Shown here: positions 49,601 through 53,576 of the stretch, piece by piece
Layout of the letters: each line of letters starts with the position of its first letter
How positions within the stretch are numbered: position 1 is the first letter of the stretch
IMG/VR virus record: IMGVR_UViG_3300002835_000092
Reading direction: 5' to 3' (one strand)
Length of the DNA: 64,000 nt
Source: an uncultured virus (IMG/VR IMGVR_UViG_3300002835_000092)
Lineage: Duplodnaviria > Heunggongvirae > Uroviricota > Caudoviricetes
The notes under the pieces: model-generated
Told to the model about the DNA's origin: nothing
Databases searched by the model: none
The model's input: only the letters and a program-made list of their open reading frames with translations
Translations under genes and position numbers: made by a program

Positions 49601-51378
49601 TACTTGCTGGAGTAAATAACTATAAACAAGGTTTTATTACTACATTAAATAGAGATGGAGTATTCTGGCAAAGAGGTAATATTTATCCTGTTCAACATTT
49701 TGTTGATTTAGGTTCAATAAGACATGTTAATCCTACCTATAAACAAAAATGGGAAACAGCTAAATTATTTATAGAGAAATTAGGTATTGTTGAAACAGGA
49801 ACTAATGAATTACAGAAAGCAGAAGCTGAAATAAAAAATAGAGCTGGTTGGATGCAACCTATGTTTATTACAGAAAAAGTAGAATATCGAAATCAAGCTA
49901 AAGGTATATTAGCTATGGCTATGGATGTTGAAATAGAACATGCTACTGAAAAAGATGCTAATGGAAATCCTGCTAAATATCCTTTATTTAATGGTAGTGA
50001 TTTTATACCTTATGTTAATAACAATGGTGTTTTAGAATTAAAACCTGAATTTGATACTCCAACAAATAGAGAACATTTAATTACTATGACTTCAAAAAAT
50101 ATTTCTGATTGGAAGTTAAATGTTAGAGCTATGAATAATAGTATGAATGGAGATTATACTAAAGAAGGTGTTACAAGAATTAAAGGTAGCTTATTTACAA
50201 GACCATTAATGACTTTTAAAACTTGGATTCCAGAATACATAGGAGCAAGATGGAAATATCAACAAAAAAATGTTCTTACTGGAGAAATTGAAACAGGTTT
50301 TATGTTATCAAGTTTACTTAATAAGAAAACTTCTGTTGCTGCTGGTTTAATGTTAGCAACTACAGGAGCATTAGGAATGGTAACAGCTTCACCTATTTTG
50401 ATTGCTGGTTTTGTTGCTTCTTTAGGATTTGGATTTGGTTATACAAAATATATAGCACATAAAAATAGAAACACAACATTAGTTAATAATACTGAACCTA
50501 TTGCTATAGTACAACAAGCAATGTATTGGTTAAAAATGATTAATCCTGTTGCTTTAGCTGAAATGCCTATAAATACTATATTTGGTAAAGAACTTATAAA
50601 ACCTGTTGAGTTTAAATCTGAACATAATCTTACTGACCAAGAAAAGAAAGATTTAAGAGCAATGGGTAGAAATATGCAACATTTAGCTATACTTATGTTA
50701 GTTAAGATTGCTATTCAAGCATTTCTTAAAGATAATGAAGATGATGAACCAAAAGGAGAAGAAGGTACAGAACAAAGAGCTAAATATGAAGCTCAAAAAT
50801 TAAGAAGAGCAGAAGGAAATCATACTTATAATTTTCTTGAAAATATGATTACTGGTACATTTAATGAATCTTCATTTGGTACAGACCCTGCTGCTTTATG
50901 GAAAGCTGGTTCAGAAGGTGGTATTGAAGGACAATTAAAAAGTATAATAAAGTTAGGTGTTGCTTTATGTAGTCCTACAGAAGAAATTCAAAAAGGACCA
51001 AGACAAGGACAAAATAAATTAAGAAATGCAGCAGCATCAATGTTTGTACCTGCTTTATTTAGAGATTTAGGACATGATACTTATAGATTTGGATTTGAAA
51101 ATTCTATGCTTACTGAATGGGATAAATCAGAAGGATTAGATGGTATATTTAATTCTGACTTTAAAGATGATAAGAAAGAATTGAAAGAAGAAAAACAATT
51201 AAAAATACAAGAACTTCTTGAAGAATATGAAACAGAAAATAATGTAGAATATGATGAATTACCAGAAGTAGAACAAGATGTAATTGATAAAGAAATTAAA
51301 GAAGAACTTGGAGATGAATTTAAAATAGACAGAGATAATTATGATGAAGAGCAAAATAAATCTGTAGATGAAGAATAA
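46630..51378 (+). CDS. Large virion cargo/ejection protein with membrane segment
   Basis: 1582 aa, helical; hydrophobic stretch VAAGLMLATTGALG...LGFGFG; acidic tail. Confidence 0.6.
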   Translation: MSCNPLNNVKQDLVDKGLVSKEKSYLVDEKNYTEVEQLIKDYNELAKEKYGFTDELMTLNHVKTPDAKNGHITNFHIKYNAENFQKFEKVLNDYNEARTKAEKDLRNEGRKIQNLDDELNDLAPTFTEDDFEDMPSNSTNTPVSKTVIQPNYNDVLEHKRKLLINVDKTITRLYNDKRLHDSVEITKKLAKFNLIKDSLEKDIKDFNSNIDKVSLIRDFFEKDIQTINELLANPTLDNVFLAKTMFDYLEKTKKSEAKDTDVFALNSKQEFEKEVQDIIDYIETHLEKTKNNIDETVDNIFLQLLEKNEDNLSKLYPGLTLEEIKEELLNKLQDINKVESYFFTQGTNLLSENNIIDQLITLEYKREKQTQNNKIQPIIESINNGLPAIEEELKRQGKFFTFRKKTVFDYNWLYRKDKIAEPELISKFSKTYENTIHNLQKKYQEDLYQARSQKDWAEVERLLKNKFNDLNDKVEFLNFTLLHDIFDDPIYDSFKRGTTQEADNYKQEIIAKIGQEEYEKAVENQRNLLDKYLNEAGLIIQAKLADENVNDQSQLSAVAKESIENSLQRISPLAFLDSFYAGQSGMVELNYGTQKDAKPSYIKFNGYIPKVQNNLGIDTGFFDENFKDIENNPIMYDFWKRMKQGVELINENLVDSDLKVKHNSILSFKEGITKQVLDKSFKTQLKEAFSKYTNLLGLFKSIISAKNYKHNESEYVQLAHQIKTIESEVSKDFALLKTDVSNILGKTLMDNTVIHWNSLSLEQQDKILAVTGMQNATEFLDNLDSTNGIFGAGDLKIFSKIKNMEQQSLNLPAVIKGLLELSADHKARAASKNETNIYRMKSADILTKDNGWHQKKDDVRENELKRQDFFYEKVILNKNQKDHPGGVNNISTILRTSLNKEHFNAPVVGKIFYKNFNKEEKGIYDSAIERIKQLENEISQTTSPKKVEQLNIEKAALHQRIELLGKDYMISALFDNIVNKLRVKVGLGYNLLAGVNNYKQGFITTLNRDGVFWQRGNIYPVQHFVDLGSIRHVNPTYKQKWETAKLFIEKLGIVETGTNELQKAEAEIKNRAGWMQPMFITEKVEYRNQAKGILAMAMDVEIEHATEKDANGNPAKYPLFNGSDFIPYVNNNGVLELKPEFDTPTNREHLITMTSKNISDWKLNVRAMNNSMNGDYTKEGVTRIKGSLFTRPLMTFKTWIPEYIGARWKYQQKNVLTGEIETGFMLSSLLNKKTSVAAGLMLATTGALGMVTASPILIAGFVASLGFGFGYTKYIAHKNRNTTLVNNTEPIAIVQQAMYWLKMINPVALAEMPINTIFGKELIKPVEFKSEHNLTDQEKKDLRAMGRNMQHLAILMLVKIAIQAFLKDNEDDEPKGEEGTEQRAKYEAQKLRRAEGNHTYNFLENMITGTFNESSFGTDPAALWKAGSEGGIEGQLKSIIKLGVALCSPTEEIQKGPRQGQNKLRNAAASMFVPALFRDLGHDTYRFGFENSMLTEWDKSEGLDGIFNSDFKDDKKELKEEKQLKIQELLEEYETENNVEYDELPEVEQDVIDKEIKEELGDEFKIDRDNYDEEQNKSVDEE

Positions 51379-51403
51379 AAAAAAGTAAAAGTGAGGTAAT
51401 AAA

Positions 51404-51453
51404 AAATGCACACATTTTCCGAAAATATAGTAAAATGGAAAATGTGTGCATTT
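51404..51453. terminator. 17-bp perfect inverted repeat between convergent transcription blocks
   Basis: AAATGCACACATTTTCC / GGAAAATGTGTGCATTT. Confidence 0.75.
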
Positions 51454-51533
51454 ATATTGTGTAAAAAACTACTCATTAGGGTGAACATCTTTTAATTATA
51501 GGATTCCTACCTATCCTAAATCTTGTAGTTTAG

Positions 51534-51606
51534 TGGGAAGACCAGGAGTTGAACCTGAATGGCTGGTTCTTCAAACCAGTGCATTGACCACCTATGCTAT
51601 CTTCCC
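51534..51606 (-). tRNA. tRNA-Phe(GAA)
   Basis: Cloverleaf: GGGAAGA/TCTTCCC acceptor, CTGGT-TTGAAGA-ACCAG anticodon arm, TTCAACT T-loop; no encoded CCA. Confidence 0.9.
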
Positions 51607-51704
51607 TTATAAAATAATAAATACCGAATTAATCAAAATTCTTATGTTGTATTGCTTCCAACCACTCATACAAAACCATTGGGTAGGTTATTTATTATTT
51701 TTTG

Positions 51705-51776
51705 TACTGCATAGGGGATTTGAACCCCTGACCTCACATAGAAAGTGTGATGTGATAACCCCTTCACTAATGCAGC
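51705..51776 (-). tRNA. tRNA-Glu(TTC)
   Basis: GCTGCAT/ATGCAGT acceptor, TCACA-CTTTCTA-TGTGA, AGGGG-TTCAAAT-CCCCT. Confidence 0.88.
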
Positions 51777-51782
51777 AAATTG

Positions 51783-51853
51783 TAAATCTAACTGGATTTG
51801 AACCAATACAAACAGCTCCAAAAACTGTTGTGCTACCATTACACCATAGATTT
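51783..51853 (-). tRNA. tRNA-Gln(TTG)
   Basis: AAATCTA/TAGATTT acceptor, ACAGT-TTTTGGA-GCTGT, ATTGG-TTCAAAT-CCAGT. Confidence 0.88.
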
Positions 51854-51943
51854 AATTTGATATACTATTTTTCCCATTAATTGTAGCCTATTTAGTTTAT
51901 CCACAGTTGCTTACTCCGTATATCAGGGAACACTATCTGTTTG

Positions 51944-52015
51944 CTGATGATGTAGGACTTGAACCTACAACCTTCTGATTAACAGTCAGATGCTCTACCA
52001 TTGAGCTAATCACCA
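51944..52015 (-). tRNA. tRNA-Asn(GTT)
   Basis: TGGTGAT/ATCATCA acceptor, GCTC-AATGGTA-GAGC, TCTGA-CTGTTAA-TCAGA, GTAGG-TTCAAGT-CCTAC. Confidence 0.92.
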
Positions 52016-52025
52016 ATTTATTTTG

Positions 52026-52094
52026 TGGGAGTAGAAGGCATCGAACCTACTATTTGAGCTTTTACAGAGCTGGTTTCTCCAAAGAATTACTCCC
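52026..52094 (-). tRNA. Atypical tRNA-Tyr(GTA)-like gene
   Basis: Perfect GGGAGTA/TACTCCC acceptor, AGCT-CTGTAAA-AGCT arm, TTCGATG T-loop; shortened D-arm, no long variable arm. Confidence 0.6.
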
Positions 52095-52130
52095 AAAACA
52101 AAAAATCCTCTATGTCAGTAGAGGATTTTT
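52095..52130 (-). terminator. Intrinsic terminator directly upstream of the tRNA cluster (attenuator terminator)
   Basis: Minus strand AAAAATCCTCTA-CTGACA-TAGAGGATTTTT-TGTTTT. Confidence 0.85.
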
Positions 52131-52150
52131 AAACAAGATATAAATATTAA

Positions 52151-52222
52151 TTATACCAAATCATCCTCCTTGAGATTGCTCTCATGGTTAAAATTGAATT
52201 GATATGATTGATTTGTTTTCAT
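52151..52222 (-). CDS. Leader peptide MKTNQSYQFNFNHESNLKEDDLV (23 aa; not in the ORF track)
   Basis: ATG...TAA, 72 nt, starting 4 nt after a TATATTTG promoter element; overlaps the antiterminator strand. Confidence 0.7.
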   Translation of the reverse strand: MKTNQSYQFNFNHESNLKEDDLV

Positions 52223-52226
52223 GCTG

Positions 52227-52234
52227 CAAATATA
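52227..52234 (-). promoter_or_regulatory. Bacteroidota -7 element (TATATTTG) driving the leader and tRNA cluster
   Basis: Plus-strand CAAATATA in the intergenic region. Confidence 0.75.
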
Positions 52235-52257
52235 TAAAGTTTTATTTAATAAAAAAA

Positions 52258-52446
52258 TTATTTATCTTTTTTTTGTAAATAATTATAAGTTCTTATATGT
52301 GTAATAGATTTTTCTTCTTCACATATACCACAAATTCCTTTATGAAATGTAGTACAACCTCCTTCTTCTTTTTGTTTATCAGTTAAATAAGGTACACCAC
52401 ATTCAACACAAACATAATCTGATTTTCTGTTTTCTACTGTATTCAT
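52258..52446 (-). CDS. Small Zn-finger-like protein
   Basis: CVECG...CGIC; ATG 52446 just after the upstream stop. Confidence 0.6.
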   Translation of the reverse strand: MNTVENRKSDYVCVECGVPYLTDKQKEEGGCTTFHKGICGICEEEKSITHIRTYNYLQKKDK

Positions 52447-52447
52447 T

Positions 52448-53032
52448 TTAAGGAATATATAAATTAGTTGGATTATCTTTATGAACTTCAATTTCTGGAT
52501 AATGAGAAGTAAATTCTCTTAAATCAAATGGTTTAGTTATAAGATGTAAACCTGATTTAGAAGGAATATACACAATAATCTTTTTATGAGGTGGTTCTGC
52601 TTTTTCAATTATTTCCTCCATCCTAAAAATTTCATTATAGTTCATTATTCCATCAATATCAAGAATCCATTTCTTTTCATCATCATTATGACCTAAACCA
52701 CAAGCTCTATCATAAGATGCTTTAAGAAATTGATATTCTCTATTAGACATTGTATTAGCTACATTTACCATAGTTTTAAATCCTACTTCTTCATAAGACC
52801 TTTTATTTAATCTAATAGAAGCTCTTGCATTAAAAACTTCACATAGTTTTTTAATTTCATCATAATGATTAATTAAATATTCTTCTGAATTAATATAGTA
52901 ATTTTTAATTACTCTACTATTACTACCGATTTGAGGGTTCTCTTTCTTTCTCTGTAAAACTTGAAGATAATAAAAATCATCTGCTGATTCAAATTTTAAG
53001 AAAGGTAATATTAATTTTAAATTATCTACCAT
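52448..53032 (-). CDS. Hypothetical protein, possible AEP/primase-like fold
   Basis: WILDID (DxD) and SKSGLHL (SxxGxH) motifs. Confidence 0.45.
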   Translation of the reverse strand: MVDNLKLILPFLKFESADDFYYLQVLQRKKENPQIGSNSRVIKNYYINSEEYLINHYDEIKKLCEVFNARASIRLNKRSYEEVGFKTMVNVANTMSNREYQFLKASYDRACGLGHNDDEKKWILDIDGIMNYNEIFRMEEIIEKAEPPHKKIIVYIPSKSGLHLITKPFDLREFTSHYPEIEVHKDNPTNLYIP

Positions 53033-53034
53033 AA

Positions 53035-53355
53035 TTAATTTTCTTTAAATTCTTTACATGCTTTCATTTGTAAAGTAACATCTTTTCCAGTTACAGCACA
53101 TTTATGCATAATTCTTTTATTTGGTTGAGTTTTTAATAGATATTTACAAGTTTTACACCTATGAGTTTGACTATAATCTGTTAGTAAAGATTTTAATAAT
53201 AAATCTTCATTGACAGTTAATTTGATACCTTTTTCATTTATAGAATTAAAGATATTTCTTAAATCTATTTCAATTTCTTTATGAGGTAAACTTCTAAAAA
53301 TAAAGATTGTATTATGGTCTTTCAGAGAATAACACCAAATAACTTCTTCCATCAT
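53035..53355 (-). CDS. Hypothetical protein with Cys cluster
   Basis: CKTCKY...C...AC; coupled ORF. Confidence 0.55.
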   Translation of the reverse strand: MMEEVIWCYSLKDHNTIFIFRSLPHKEIEIDLRNIFNSINEKGIKLTVNEDLLLKSLLTDYSQTHRCKTCKYLLKTQPNKRIMHKCAVTGKDVTLQMKACKEFKEN

Positions 53356-53576
53356 TCTAAAATTATAAAATGTTTTTTAATTTCAATTGGATTTCTAATT
53401 CTTGATTCTACATAACTAATAGAATATTCCCAACCTATATTAAACTTATCTCTTAATTGCTGCATACCATAATAATCTACCATAGTATTAATTGATTCAA
53501 TACATTTATAACAAGGTCTTTCTTTATTAGAAACTGTTTCATGTAAACTCATAATTAAAAAGCAATTAATTTCCAA
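53352..53576 (-). CDS. Hypothetical protein
   Basis: Fills the operon gap; start uncertain. Confidence 0.4.
   Translation of the reverse strand: MEINCFLIMSLHETVSNKERPCYKCIESINTMVDYYGMQQLRDKFNIGWEYSISYVESRIRNPIEIKKHFIILE

Follow-up and report, generated by a model that had tools for sequence, protein, structure and literature searches.

A candidate leader-peptide attenuator ahead of a five-gene tRNA operon in an uncultured virus, and codon-matched leader modules in related phages

The control of a transfer RNA (tRNA) operon was explored in a stretch of 64,000 nucleotides (nt) from an uncultured virus of the Caudoviricetes (IMG/VR record IMGVR_UViG_3300002835_000092), which is called the window below. 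The element at positions 52,095 to 52,234 of its minus strand was evaluated as a ribosome-mediated (leader-peptide) transcription attenuator gating a five-gene phage tRNA operon, and a probability of about 0.78 was assigned to this reading. The reading was based on the elements present, on predicted folds and their dependence on the ribosome, on a conserved layout and on the co-variation between leaders and tRNA sets. More broadly, Bacteroidota phages quite likely carry portable cassettes of a sensor and tRNA genes, in which a multivalent leader gauges decoding speed and opens the terminator on shortage, giving homeostatic control of each cluster. Phage tRNA genes are usually viewed as passive cargo, which either tunes codon usage or makes up for tRNAs that host defences have destroyed, and little has been established about the control of their expression. 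This class of mechanism is familiar, whereas the target, the multivalent matching of codons to a cluster and the phage cassette form are not known from published accounts.

The elements of the module were located on the minus strand of the window (Table 1). The sequence-only reading had described a promoter element, 4 nt, an ATG and a 23-codon open reading frame (ORF), followed by an intrinsic terminator adjoining the first tRNA gene, and all of these were borne out at their positions. The terminator-like site (52130-52101) consisted of a 12-pair stem with 3 G-C pairs and a 6-nt loop, followed by a T-run that ended one base ahead of the first tRNA-like gene. The free energy of the hairpin was -12.5 kcal/mol, and a 3-kb scan gave 2 terminator-like sites against 0.7 +/- 0.8 in shuffles. 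The TAnnTTTG box of Flavobacterium psychrophilum lies at -12 to -5, according to the transcriptome report (PMC9723704), which would place the start in the window on the A of the leader ATG. Transcription was thus predicted to start on this A (52222) or within a base or two, and the messenger RNA (mRNA) would probably be leaderless. A sigma-70 promoter scan of the window (16 sites, 20.5 expected) was left unused because Bacteroidota promoters are outside its model. The codon counts given from the sequence alone were correct on recount: 9 of the 11 codons in NQSYQFNFNHE, and 11 of 23 overall, matched the downstream tRNAs. Moreover, all 11 matched codons could be read by the encoded anticodons under strict wobble.

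Leader modules were then compared across genomes. The promoter/start word was found at 37 loci in viral contigs and at 82 loci (72 distinct) in metagenome contigs; the promoter word alone gave 70 loci (49 distinct) in viral contigs, and 58 loci (55 distinct) were obtained from bacterial genomes. The recurrent layout comprised the -7 box, an ATG four bases on, an ORF of 15-34 codons, a terminator and a tRNA cluster. The box-to-ATG spacing was equal in all modules found, and the leaders were very different. Six sequence-distinct leader classes stood ahead of their own tRNA clusters in phage and metagenome contigs. Over the head of the window cassette (52258-52021), Tenacibaculum phage Gundel_1 had 71% identity, and this region of Gundel_1 likewise lay ahead of tRNA genes. 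Among the 49 distinct instances of the promoter word TTGTATATTTGCAGTATG, six of the seven that were followed by an ORF of 15-32 codons preceded tRNA clusters. No tRNA lay within 1.6 kb of the 33 instances with an ORF of more than 50 codons or of the 9 instances whose ORF had at most 9 codons.

The match between each leader and its own cluster was evaluated at the level of amino acids and of codons. Every amino acid of the tRNA set was present in the leader in 8/8 leaders tested. The sequence-only reading had expected related phages to keep a leader ORF and terminator before their tRNA clusters, with leader codons that co-vary with the tRNA set. This expectation was upheld in the six classes, and for the five classes permuted the true leader-cluster pairing was the best of 120 permutations in both the fraction matched and the longest run. 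The fraction matched was 2.70 for the true pairing and 1.37 on average for derangements, and the longest run was 47 versus 12.5. Runs of 10-15 consecutive matched codons were absent from the 455 short ORFs of the window. For the two leaders of Gundel_1, the fraction matched was 0.53 and 0.55 with the own cluster and 0.11 and 0.14 when the clusters were exchanged, so that the codon usage shared within one phage cannot explain the match. Under strict wobble, the codons matched were 11/11 in the window, 9/10 and 11/12 in Gundel_1 copies 1 and 2, 9/11 in L017 and 18/20 in L014. Furthermore, the codon-level match extended to which Leu, Ser and Arg boxes were used. The matched codons were concentrated from codon 4 to about codon 21, ahead of the antiterminator strand, and the 3' third of the leader, which forms that strand, contained mostly unmatched codons.

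The competing folds of the window RNA and of 9 other modules were predicted thermodynamically. In the window, a nascent RNA of 75-92 nt formed a 1:2 hairpin between the regulatory codons (nt 14-37) and nt 54-74, with a free energy of -15.1 kcal/mol. After transcription of the terminator 5' arm, the 2:3 antiterminator was obtained (-18.0 kcal/mol together with the small hairpin), and the full RNA adopted the 1:2 and 3:4 pairings (-28.7 kcal/mol). The small TGAGA-GCAA-TCTCA hairpin (52184-52171) and the antiterminator of GAGGAT with ATCCTC and the inner stem GGTATAA/TTATATC, exclusive with the terminator, had both been proposed by eye. RNAfold reproduced the two of them, the antiterminator on RNA cut before the terminator 3' arm. 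The truncated, untranslated RNA likewise folded freely into the antiterminator. The small hairpin may act as a pause hairpin for RNA polymerase. When the ribosome footprint was masked, the predicted antiterminator was kept for an A site at codon 14 or earlier and was lost from codon 16 on and at the stop, in agreement with the proposed dependence on ribosome position. Codon 14, the last A-site position that kept the antiterminator in the prediction, was also the end of the regulatory run. A switch point at about codons 14-18 was likewise predicted in Gundel_1 copies 1 and 2, L014, L017 (in part), L086, L136 and L022.

The strands of the switch were also compared among the modules. A strong hairpin with a T-run terminated every module folded, and in each of them the 3' part of the leader copied the terminator 3' arm. 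In Gundel_1 copy 2, the copied stretch was an exact 11-nt duplicate TGGAAGGATTT of this arm. The Gundel_1 hairpin occupied the same place as the window terminator with a different sequence. Strands 2, 3 and 4 read AGCAGGA/TCCTGCT/AGTAGGA in Gundel_1 copy 1 versus GAGGAT/ATCCTC/GAGGAT in the window, and had thus changed together. The antiterminator duplexes had z values of -1.4 to -5.0 against shuffles across 10 modules. When antiterminator strands and terminators were permuted among six classes, the own pairing was the 2nd best of 720 permutations.

According to the attenuator reading, transcription would proceed from the Bacteroidota sigma-A type promoter, and the 5' end of the RNA would lie at the leader AUG or a base or two away. 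A ribosome would translate the 23-codon leader, in which codons 4-14 are nearly all Asn, Gln, Tyr, Phe and Glu. With fast decoding, the ribosome at the stop would cover strand 2, because the stop codon is inside this strand. Strand 3 would then pair with strand 4, the terminator would form, and RNA polymerase would halt one base before the first tRNA gene. If a cognate charged tRNA were scarce, the ribosome would stall on strand 1, strand 2 would pair with strand 3, the terminator would be blocked and the tRNAs would be transcribed. The tRNA product would relieve the stall, and hence the supply of exactly the tRNAs of the cassette would be under negative-feedback control. The natural cause of tRNA depletion would be a codon-usage mismatch with the host, starvation or tRNA-cleaving defences of the host. 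A link to anticodon nucleases is speculation; in the boldest form of the proposal, the cassette is a counter-measure switched on when host defences cleave or deplete those tRNAs.

The module was compared with known systems. The enterobacterial attenuators include the multivalent thrL (Thr, Ile) and ilvL (Ile, Leu, Val) as well as trpL, hisL, pheL and leuL. They resemble the window module in a short translated leader with regulatory codons, in strands that pair as 1:2, 2:3 or 3:4, in an intrinsic terminator before the regulated genes, in the selection of the fold by ribosome position and in the several amino acids sampled per leader. The window contained the corresponding 5' short ORF, cognate codon run, terminator, exclusive antiterminator and 1:2 pairing, with the folds being predicted. 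However, the regulated genes were five tRNA genes and not genes of biosynthesis or of an aminoacyl-tRNA synthetase, and the output is therefore the very molecule whose shortage would be sensed. The phage modules further differed in sampling five to seven amino acids, in a probably leaderless mRNA and in the form of a portable phage cassette. The best non-tRNA match in Rfam was Phe_leader (RF01859; full model, 52223-52097, 27.1 bits, expectation value (E) 0.032, gathering score 55), which reflected only a resemblance of layout and not membership.

The same layout was found in Bacteroidota. In two Chitinophagaceae sequences (L219, 1812-2000 (+), and L230 (-)), the leaders MKTNMHKFHHHFLPLG and MKTNTHVHHHVTCLQR (..HKFHHH.., ..HVHHH..) and a terminator preceded hisG. 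In a metagenome contig (L062 (-)), the W-S-W leader MKTNYSYIWSWRSIFVKAVF and a terminator preceded a TrpB-like gene (NF009057, 466 bits versus a cut-off of 366). These his/trp attenuators shared with the phage modules the TAnnTTTG box, the 4-nt spacing, the ATGAAAACAAA start, a terminator with a T-run and an antiterminator strand overlapping the leader stop codon; their leaders had 16-20 codons. They differed in sensing one amino acid (His or Trp) and in their host chromosomal biosynthetic targets, and a tRNA cluster followed the word in none of the 55 distinct instances in bacterial genomes. The shared -7 box, 4-nt spacing and ATGAAAACAAA start suggest that leaderless leader peptides are a standard design in this phylum, and the cassette design appears to have been borrowed from host his/trp attenuators. 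In F. psychrophilum, 5.5% of the mRNAs are leaderless according to the transcriptome report, in which hints of leader-peptide attenuation are also given for the regions ahead of amino-acid operons (PMC9723704). The trp/his-type ribosome-mediated attenuation named in the sequence-only reading was supported by the co-variation in six classes, by the fit of each antiterminator to its own terminator, by the fold geometry and by this layout.

Other comparisons concerned the translation apparatus and phage tRNAs. The pheST operon of Escherichia coli is attenuated via the pheM leader and is thus another case of leader-peptide attenuation of a translation component that serves the sensed amino acid. 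It differs in controlling a host operon for an aminoacyl-tRNA synthetase and in responding to one amino acid only. T-box riboswitches are similar in their competing terminator and antiterminator, which respond to the state of a specific tRNA. However, they are untranslated and bind the uncharged tRNA directly through the specifier codon and the T-box loop, whereas a translating ribosome would be the reader here. No T-box was found in Rfam scans of 51440-52240 (E up to 10) or 50500-53500 (E up to 1). Phage tRNA clusters in general are understood as compensation for a codon-usage mismatch or for depletion or cleavage of host tRNAs, and they have the same cargo and the same presumed benefit, namely that phage translation is kept going. 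In the full-text literature, no account of leader-peptide control of tRNA genes or of a codon-matched sensor upstream was found, with subscription-only papers outside the coverage. In the excerpts available, PMC3082878 mentions a tRNA operon in another sense and PMC2965389 does not contain the phrase 'tRNA gene'.

If the attenuator reading is true, a phage senses how fast each codon is decoded and limits its tRNA production to what is needed. The range of ribosome-mediated attenuation would then include the translation apparatus itself and viruses, in addition to metabolic operons. Moreover, the tRNA content of an unannotated cluster would be predictable from the leader, and vice versa. The idea is directly testable because a cultured pair, Tenacibaculum phage Gundel_1 and Tenacibaculum sp. 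AHE14PA, carries two modules. A single phage may contain several such cassettes, each fitted to its own tRNA set (Gundel_1, L196).

Several points weighed against the attenuator reading. In the window alone, the evidence was marginal for both the codon match and the antiterminator complementarity. Asn, Gln, Tyr, Glu and Phe accounted for 11/22 non-initiator codons (binomial P = 0.026 against a window-proteome background of 0.284). An equal codon match was found in 4.0% of the 455 short ATG ORFs of the window, and a run of 6 in 0.7%. By the criterion named in the sequence-only reading, codon enrichment over random ORFs of matched composition, the window on its own was borderline (P = 0.026 binomial, 0.04 empirical). 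The duplex of strands 2 and 3 had -8.8 kcal/mol versus -5.3 +/- 1.8 kcal/mol when shuffled (z = -2.0), and 6.2% of the shuffles were as good. Hence, the case rests on the comparison. The comparison itself comprised only 5-6 independent classes, and the members of one class, family A, are relatives and not independent cases because the modules were gathered by a shared promoter/start word. In addition, L022 had a family A leader and only a Phe tRNA within 1.5 kb, and L199 had a 25-codon ORF behind the same promoter with no tRNA within 1.6 kb.

Further points of this kind concerned the switch and its cargo. The folds are thermodynamic predictions with kinetics outside the model, and the small number of G-C pairs bears on the strength of the window terminator. 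In family A, the ORF continues 9-12 codons past strand 2, so that masking of this strand by a ribosome at the stop codon fails in its simple form there. Transcription start, leader translation, stalling and read-through were inferred. Public runs matching the module words numbered 9, and those of RNA type carried 5-8% of the sampled words. The contigs of the RNA-type runs matched only tRNA-sized pieces, 90-95% alike, with loose ends unlike the window, and came from other organisms. The Ser and His codons in the regulatory run had no tRNA in the cassette. The first tRNA of the cluster, the element with anticodon GTA, was below threshold in Rfam with an atypical D arm, and a similar element occurred without any leader in L003, L006 and L053.

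The alternative explanations were weighed against these results. That a real attenuator responds to the supply of amino acids or to the general translation state (starvation, host shut-off or the availability of ribosomes for leaderless mRNA) and not to these tRNAs is unlikely; the tRNA operon would in that case be a further target linked to translation, as are aminoacyl-tRNA synthetase operons. Stalling of the ribosome is the same for an absent tRNA as for an uncharged one, and the same layout controls host his and trp genes. Moreover, the antiterminator fold of the untranslated truncated RNA means that a lack of translation could also open the gate. However, the leaders follow the tRNA set per codon, down to Trp and Cys, which are rare, and to the divided codon boxes of Leu, Ser and Arg. 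The two Gundel_1 modules each follow their own cluster, and a general sensor would need no such specificity.

It is very improbable that the hairpin is the terminator of the upstream block or an insulator, with a 23-codon ORF present by chance and tRNAs made through leak-through or an unrecognised promoter. The ORF, its start context, its length class and its set-specific codons recurred before tRNA clusters in unrelated contigs, and none of the 455 chance ORFs of the window reached such runs. The T-run and the tRNA-like gene are also too close together for a promoter to fit between them. The marginal statistics of the window alone were in line with this explanation, as was the lack of any other terminator of the upstream 62-amino-acid gene before 52130. 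L006 had the same tRNA-like gene after a coding gene and terminator, with no leader. Furthermore, TATCTTGT in the spacer fitted, by eye, the alternative-sigma TAnnTTGY box given in PMC9723704.

A role of the hairpin and leader as a processing or stability element of the tRNA precursor (an entry site of RNase E or P, or a protective 5' structure) was judged slightly less probable still. In the window, Gundel_1 and L006, the hairpin does directly adjoin the 5' end of the first mature tRNA. However, a T-run typical of intrinsic terminators followed the hairpin in every module, the HNH gene separates the hairpin from the tRNAs in Gundel_1 copy 2, and the copy of the terminator 3' arm in strand 2, such as the duplicate in that module, would be left unexplained. 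Least probable was a functional micropeptide (e.g., the Cys-rich peptides of family A) with its own terminator in an incidental position: the conserved ORF length, the MKT(K/N) start and the CxxCxC-like pattern of family A agree with it, but the peptides differ between classes while the match to the tRNA set persists, the Cys codons are explained by the Cys tRNA of those clusters, and MKT(K/N) also opens host his/trp leaders and many ordinary genes.

The tRNA cluster of the window was evaluated gene by gene. The sequence-only reading had listed Tyr, Asn, Gln, Glu and Phe; four of these were clear (60.8-75.4 bits), and the Tyr-like gene was weaker. The GTA element scored 25.6 bits and its Gundel_1 copy 27.8 bits, both below the gathering score of 29 of the tRNA family (Rfam RF00005), and ARAGORN called it Tyr(gta) solely at the 90% threshold. 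It was 69 nt long; its variable arm was short, and its D arm was reduced to a 3-bp stem and a 4-nt loop. In five homologues, the cloverleaf contained 19 pairs with 96.8% of the cells paired, 7 pairs were changed on both sides, and 0/500 shuffles were as high. The four helices are supported because this pairing is conserved across homologues from different contigs. The element was about 91% conserved in five contig contexts (window 52026-52094 (-), L003 1501-1572, L006 1501-1572, L053 1487-1558 and L001 2662-2733). It lay inside Lys-tRNA clusters in L003 and L053 and alone after a coding gene and terminator in L006; L053 additionally had a canonical long-arm tRNA-Tyr. No match to tRNA or to another RNA family was obtained at E up to 10 in the spacers 51854-51942 (89 nt) and 51607-51703 (97 nt) on the minus strand; they could have arisen by decay of tRNA genes that once served the unmatched Ser and His codons.

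Table 1. Features of the candidate attenuator cassette in the window, and leader modules of the same layout in other genomes.
Feature	Position	Strand	Basis or remark
Bacteroidota sigma-A type -7 box TATATTTG	52227..52234	-	sequence; TAnnTTTG type
CAGC between box and start codon	52226-52223	-	sequence; 4 nt
Leader ATG	52222-52220	-	sequence
Leader ORF MKTNQSYQFNFNHESNLKEDDLV, 23 codons + TAA	52151..52222	-	ORF list
Regulatory codon run N4-E14, NQSYQFNFNHE	52181..52213	-	overlaps strand 1 (52209-52186) of leader hairpin
Small hairpin TGAGA-GCAA-TCTCA	52171..52184	-	RNAfold; tip of 1:2 structure; -4.9 kcal/mol folded alone
Strand 2 GGAGGATGATTTGGTATAATT	52149..52169	-	pairs with strand 1 (anti-antiterminator) or strand 3 (antiterminator)
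Strand 3, TTATATC + terminator 5' arm ATCCTCT	52120..52143	-	pairs with strand 2 (antiterminator) or strand 4 (terminator)
Intrinsic terminator hairpin (52130-52101) + T-run	52095..52130	-	adjoins first tRNA-like gene
tRNA-like gene, anticodon GTA (Tyr)	52026..52094	-	Rfam 25.6 bits; ARAGORN at 90% threshold; covariation
tRNA-Asn (GTT)	51943..52015	-	ARAGORN default; Rfam 75.4 bits
tRNA-Gln (TTG)	51782..51853	-	ARAGORN default; Rfam 64.5 bits
tRNA-Glu (TTC)	51704..51776	-	ARAGORN default; Rfam 60.8 bits
tRNA-Phe (GAA)	51533..51606	-	ARAGORN default; Rfam 61.8 bits
Whole cassette, ~0.8 kb (promoter, leader, attenuator, five tRNA genes)	51455..52257	-	boundaries read by eye
Long hairpin between tRNA cluster and convergent 1582-amino-acid gene	51397..51459	.	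sequence
Gundel_1 copy 1, leader MKTKLYSYSCFSSWFKNRAG			tRNAs Tyr-like, Trp, Phe, Ser(TGA), Cys-like, Ser(GCT)
Gundel_1 copy 2, leader MKTNNLHIQQNNLPVFLEGFLYM			inserted HNH gene, then tRNAs Pro, Gln, Met, Asn, Leu
L017, leader MKTKRLHLEQLEQPIIFGRDKYVM (MKTKRLHLEQLEQP...; RLHLEQLEQP)			tRNAs Pro, Glu, Gln, His, Leu, Leu, Arg
L196(+), leader MKNLRLHLELEQPLP...			tRNAs Pro, Glu, Gln, His, Leu, Leu, Arg
L196(-), convergent, family A, leader MKNFSTYCNSNWSFS...			tRNAs Tyr, Ser, Ser, Asn, Trp, Phe, Cys-like
Family A (L014, L034, L055, L081, L086, L136), leaders such as MKTKNTFNSFWSYSNCSSCNC..., ..FNSFWSYSNCSSCNC..			tRNAs Tyr, Ser, Ser, Asn, Trp, Phe, Cys
L203, leader MKITSTYSSLSLLYS			tRNAs Leu, Leu, Ser, Tyr

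Variation of the window module itself was also collected. The leader ORF was identical at 13 other loci, and the nearest virus record (G001) was 100% identical across the region and therefore added no variation. A variant of about 95% identity in run X9 (window 51546-52240) kept the frame, with a synonymous change in leader codon 15 and an in-frame GAT insertion after leader nt 63. The same variant had further changes in the spacer and the terminator loop, and its stretch with the 97-nt spacer and tRNA-Glu was replaced by 134 other letters. As for word counts, TATATTTGCA with at most one mismatch was not enriched in the window (16 found, 20.1 expected), and TANNTTTGNNNNATG was counted 6 times against 2.5 expected.

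Additional features were observed in the other modules. The terminator and the tRNA cluster of Gundel_1 copy 2 were separated by a gene for an HNH endonuclease (L001 3393-3899), which had a promoter-like box of its own; this arrangement resembles the insertion of a homing endonuclease into the regulated operon. At L001 2983-3056, L055 ~2765-2838 and L086 26-99 (-), there were Cys-like tRNAs whose core was GCA and whose anticodon stems or loops were irregular. ARAGORN gave them 2- or 4-base 'anticodons', and the Gundel_1 record labels its copy as undetermined; they aligned with the regular tRNA-Cys(GCA) genes of L014 and L034. A possible second, weaker module on the contig of L017 (minus strand of L137, G002:C1:1-2400, between tRNA-Arg and tRNA-Ala) would consist of a 44-amino-acid hydrophobic ORF, the 23-codon ORF MMTITGVTAIDRTKGKPLGRQSI, a terminator and then Ala, Lys, Ile, Gly, Met and Asp tRNAs. 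This candidate was kept out of the statistics because 12/23 codons matched and four Thr codons were unmatched. A conserved 15-codon ORF (MKTKNPNVSI...) followed the same 19-nt word in the GC-rich viral contigs L010, L011, L012, L015, L018, L023, L030, L033 and L038. These contigs had a different upstream context and no downstream tRNAs.

The surroundings of the cassette were compared with the otherwise syntenic F. psychrophilum phage FpV4, from which the cassette is missing. In FpV4, the stop of the 62-amino-acid gene was followed directly by a two-way hairpin. The hairpin at 51397..51459 was homologous to it and is likely a two-way terminator that closes the tRNA operon; Rfam matches of microRNA type at this site reflected the hairpin only. 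A MAFFT alignment of the window and FpV4 showed the ~0.8-kb gap, with the distal hairpin misplaced. Searches of the neighbouring proteins against Pfam, NCBIfam and PHROGs gave families of unknown function only, with no link to tRNA repair or a nuclease. The 194-amino-acid ORF at 52451-53032 (-), located between the 106-amino-acid and 62-amino-acid genes, belonged to phrog_14949 (unknown function), had no Pfam or NCBIfam match and had no counterpart at the same position in FpV4. The upstream block of small genes was syntenic with FpV4 and ended with the 62-amino-acid gene (52261-52446 (-); L002 2501-2679), whose stop is at 52258. This gene, which had no family match and is not annotated in the FpV4 record, contained paired Cys motifs. 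Among the matches listed, it was the only part shared with Flavobacterium phage records, at 90.5% DNA identity (28/30 rows listed; 29 Flavobacterium records in all).

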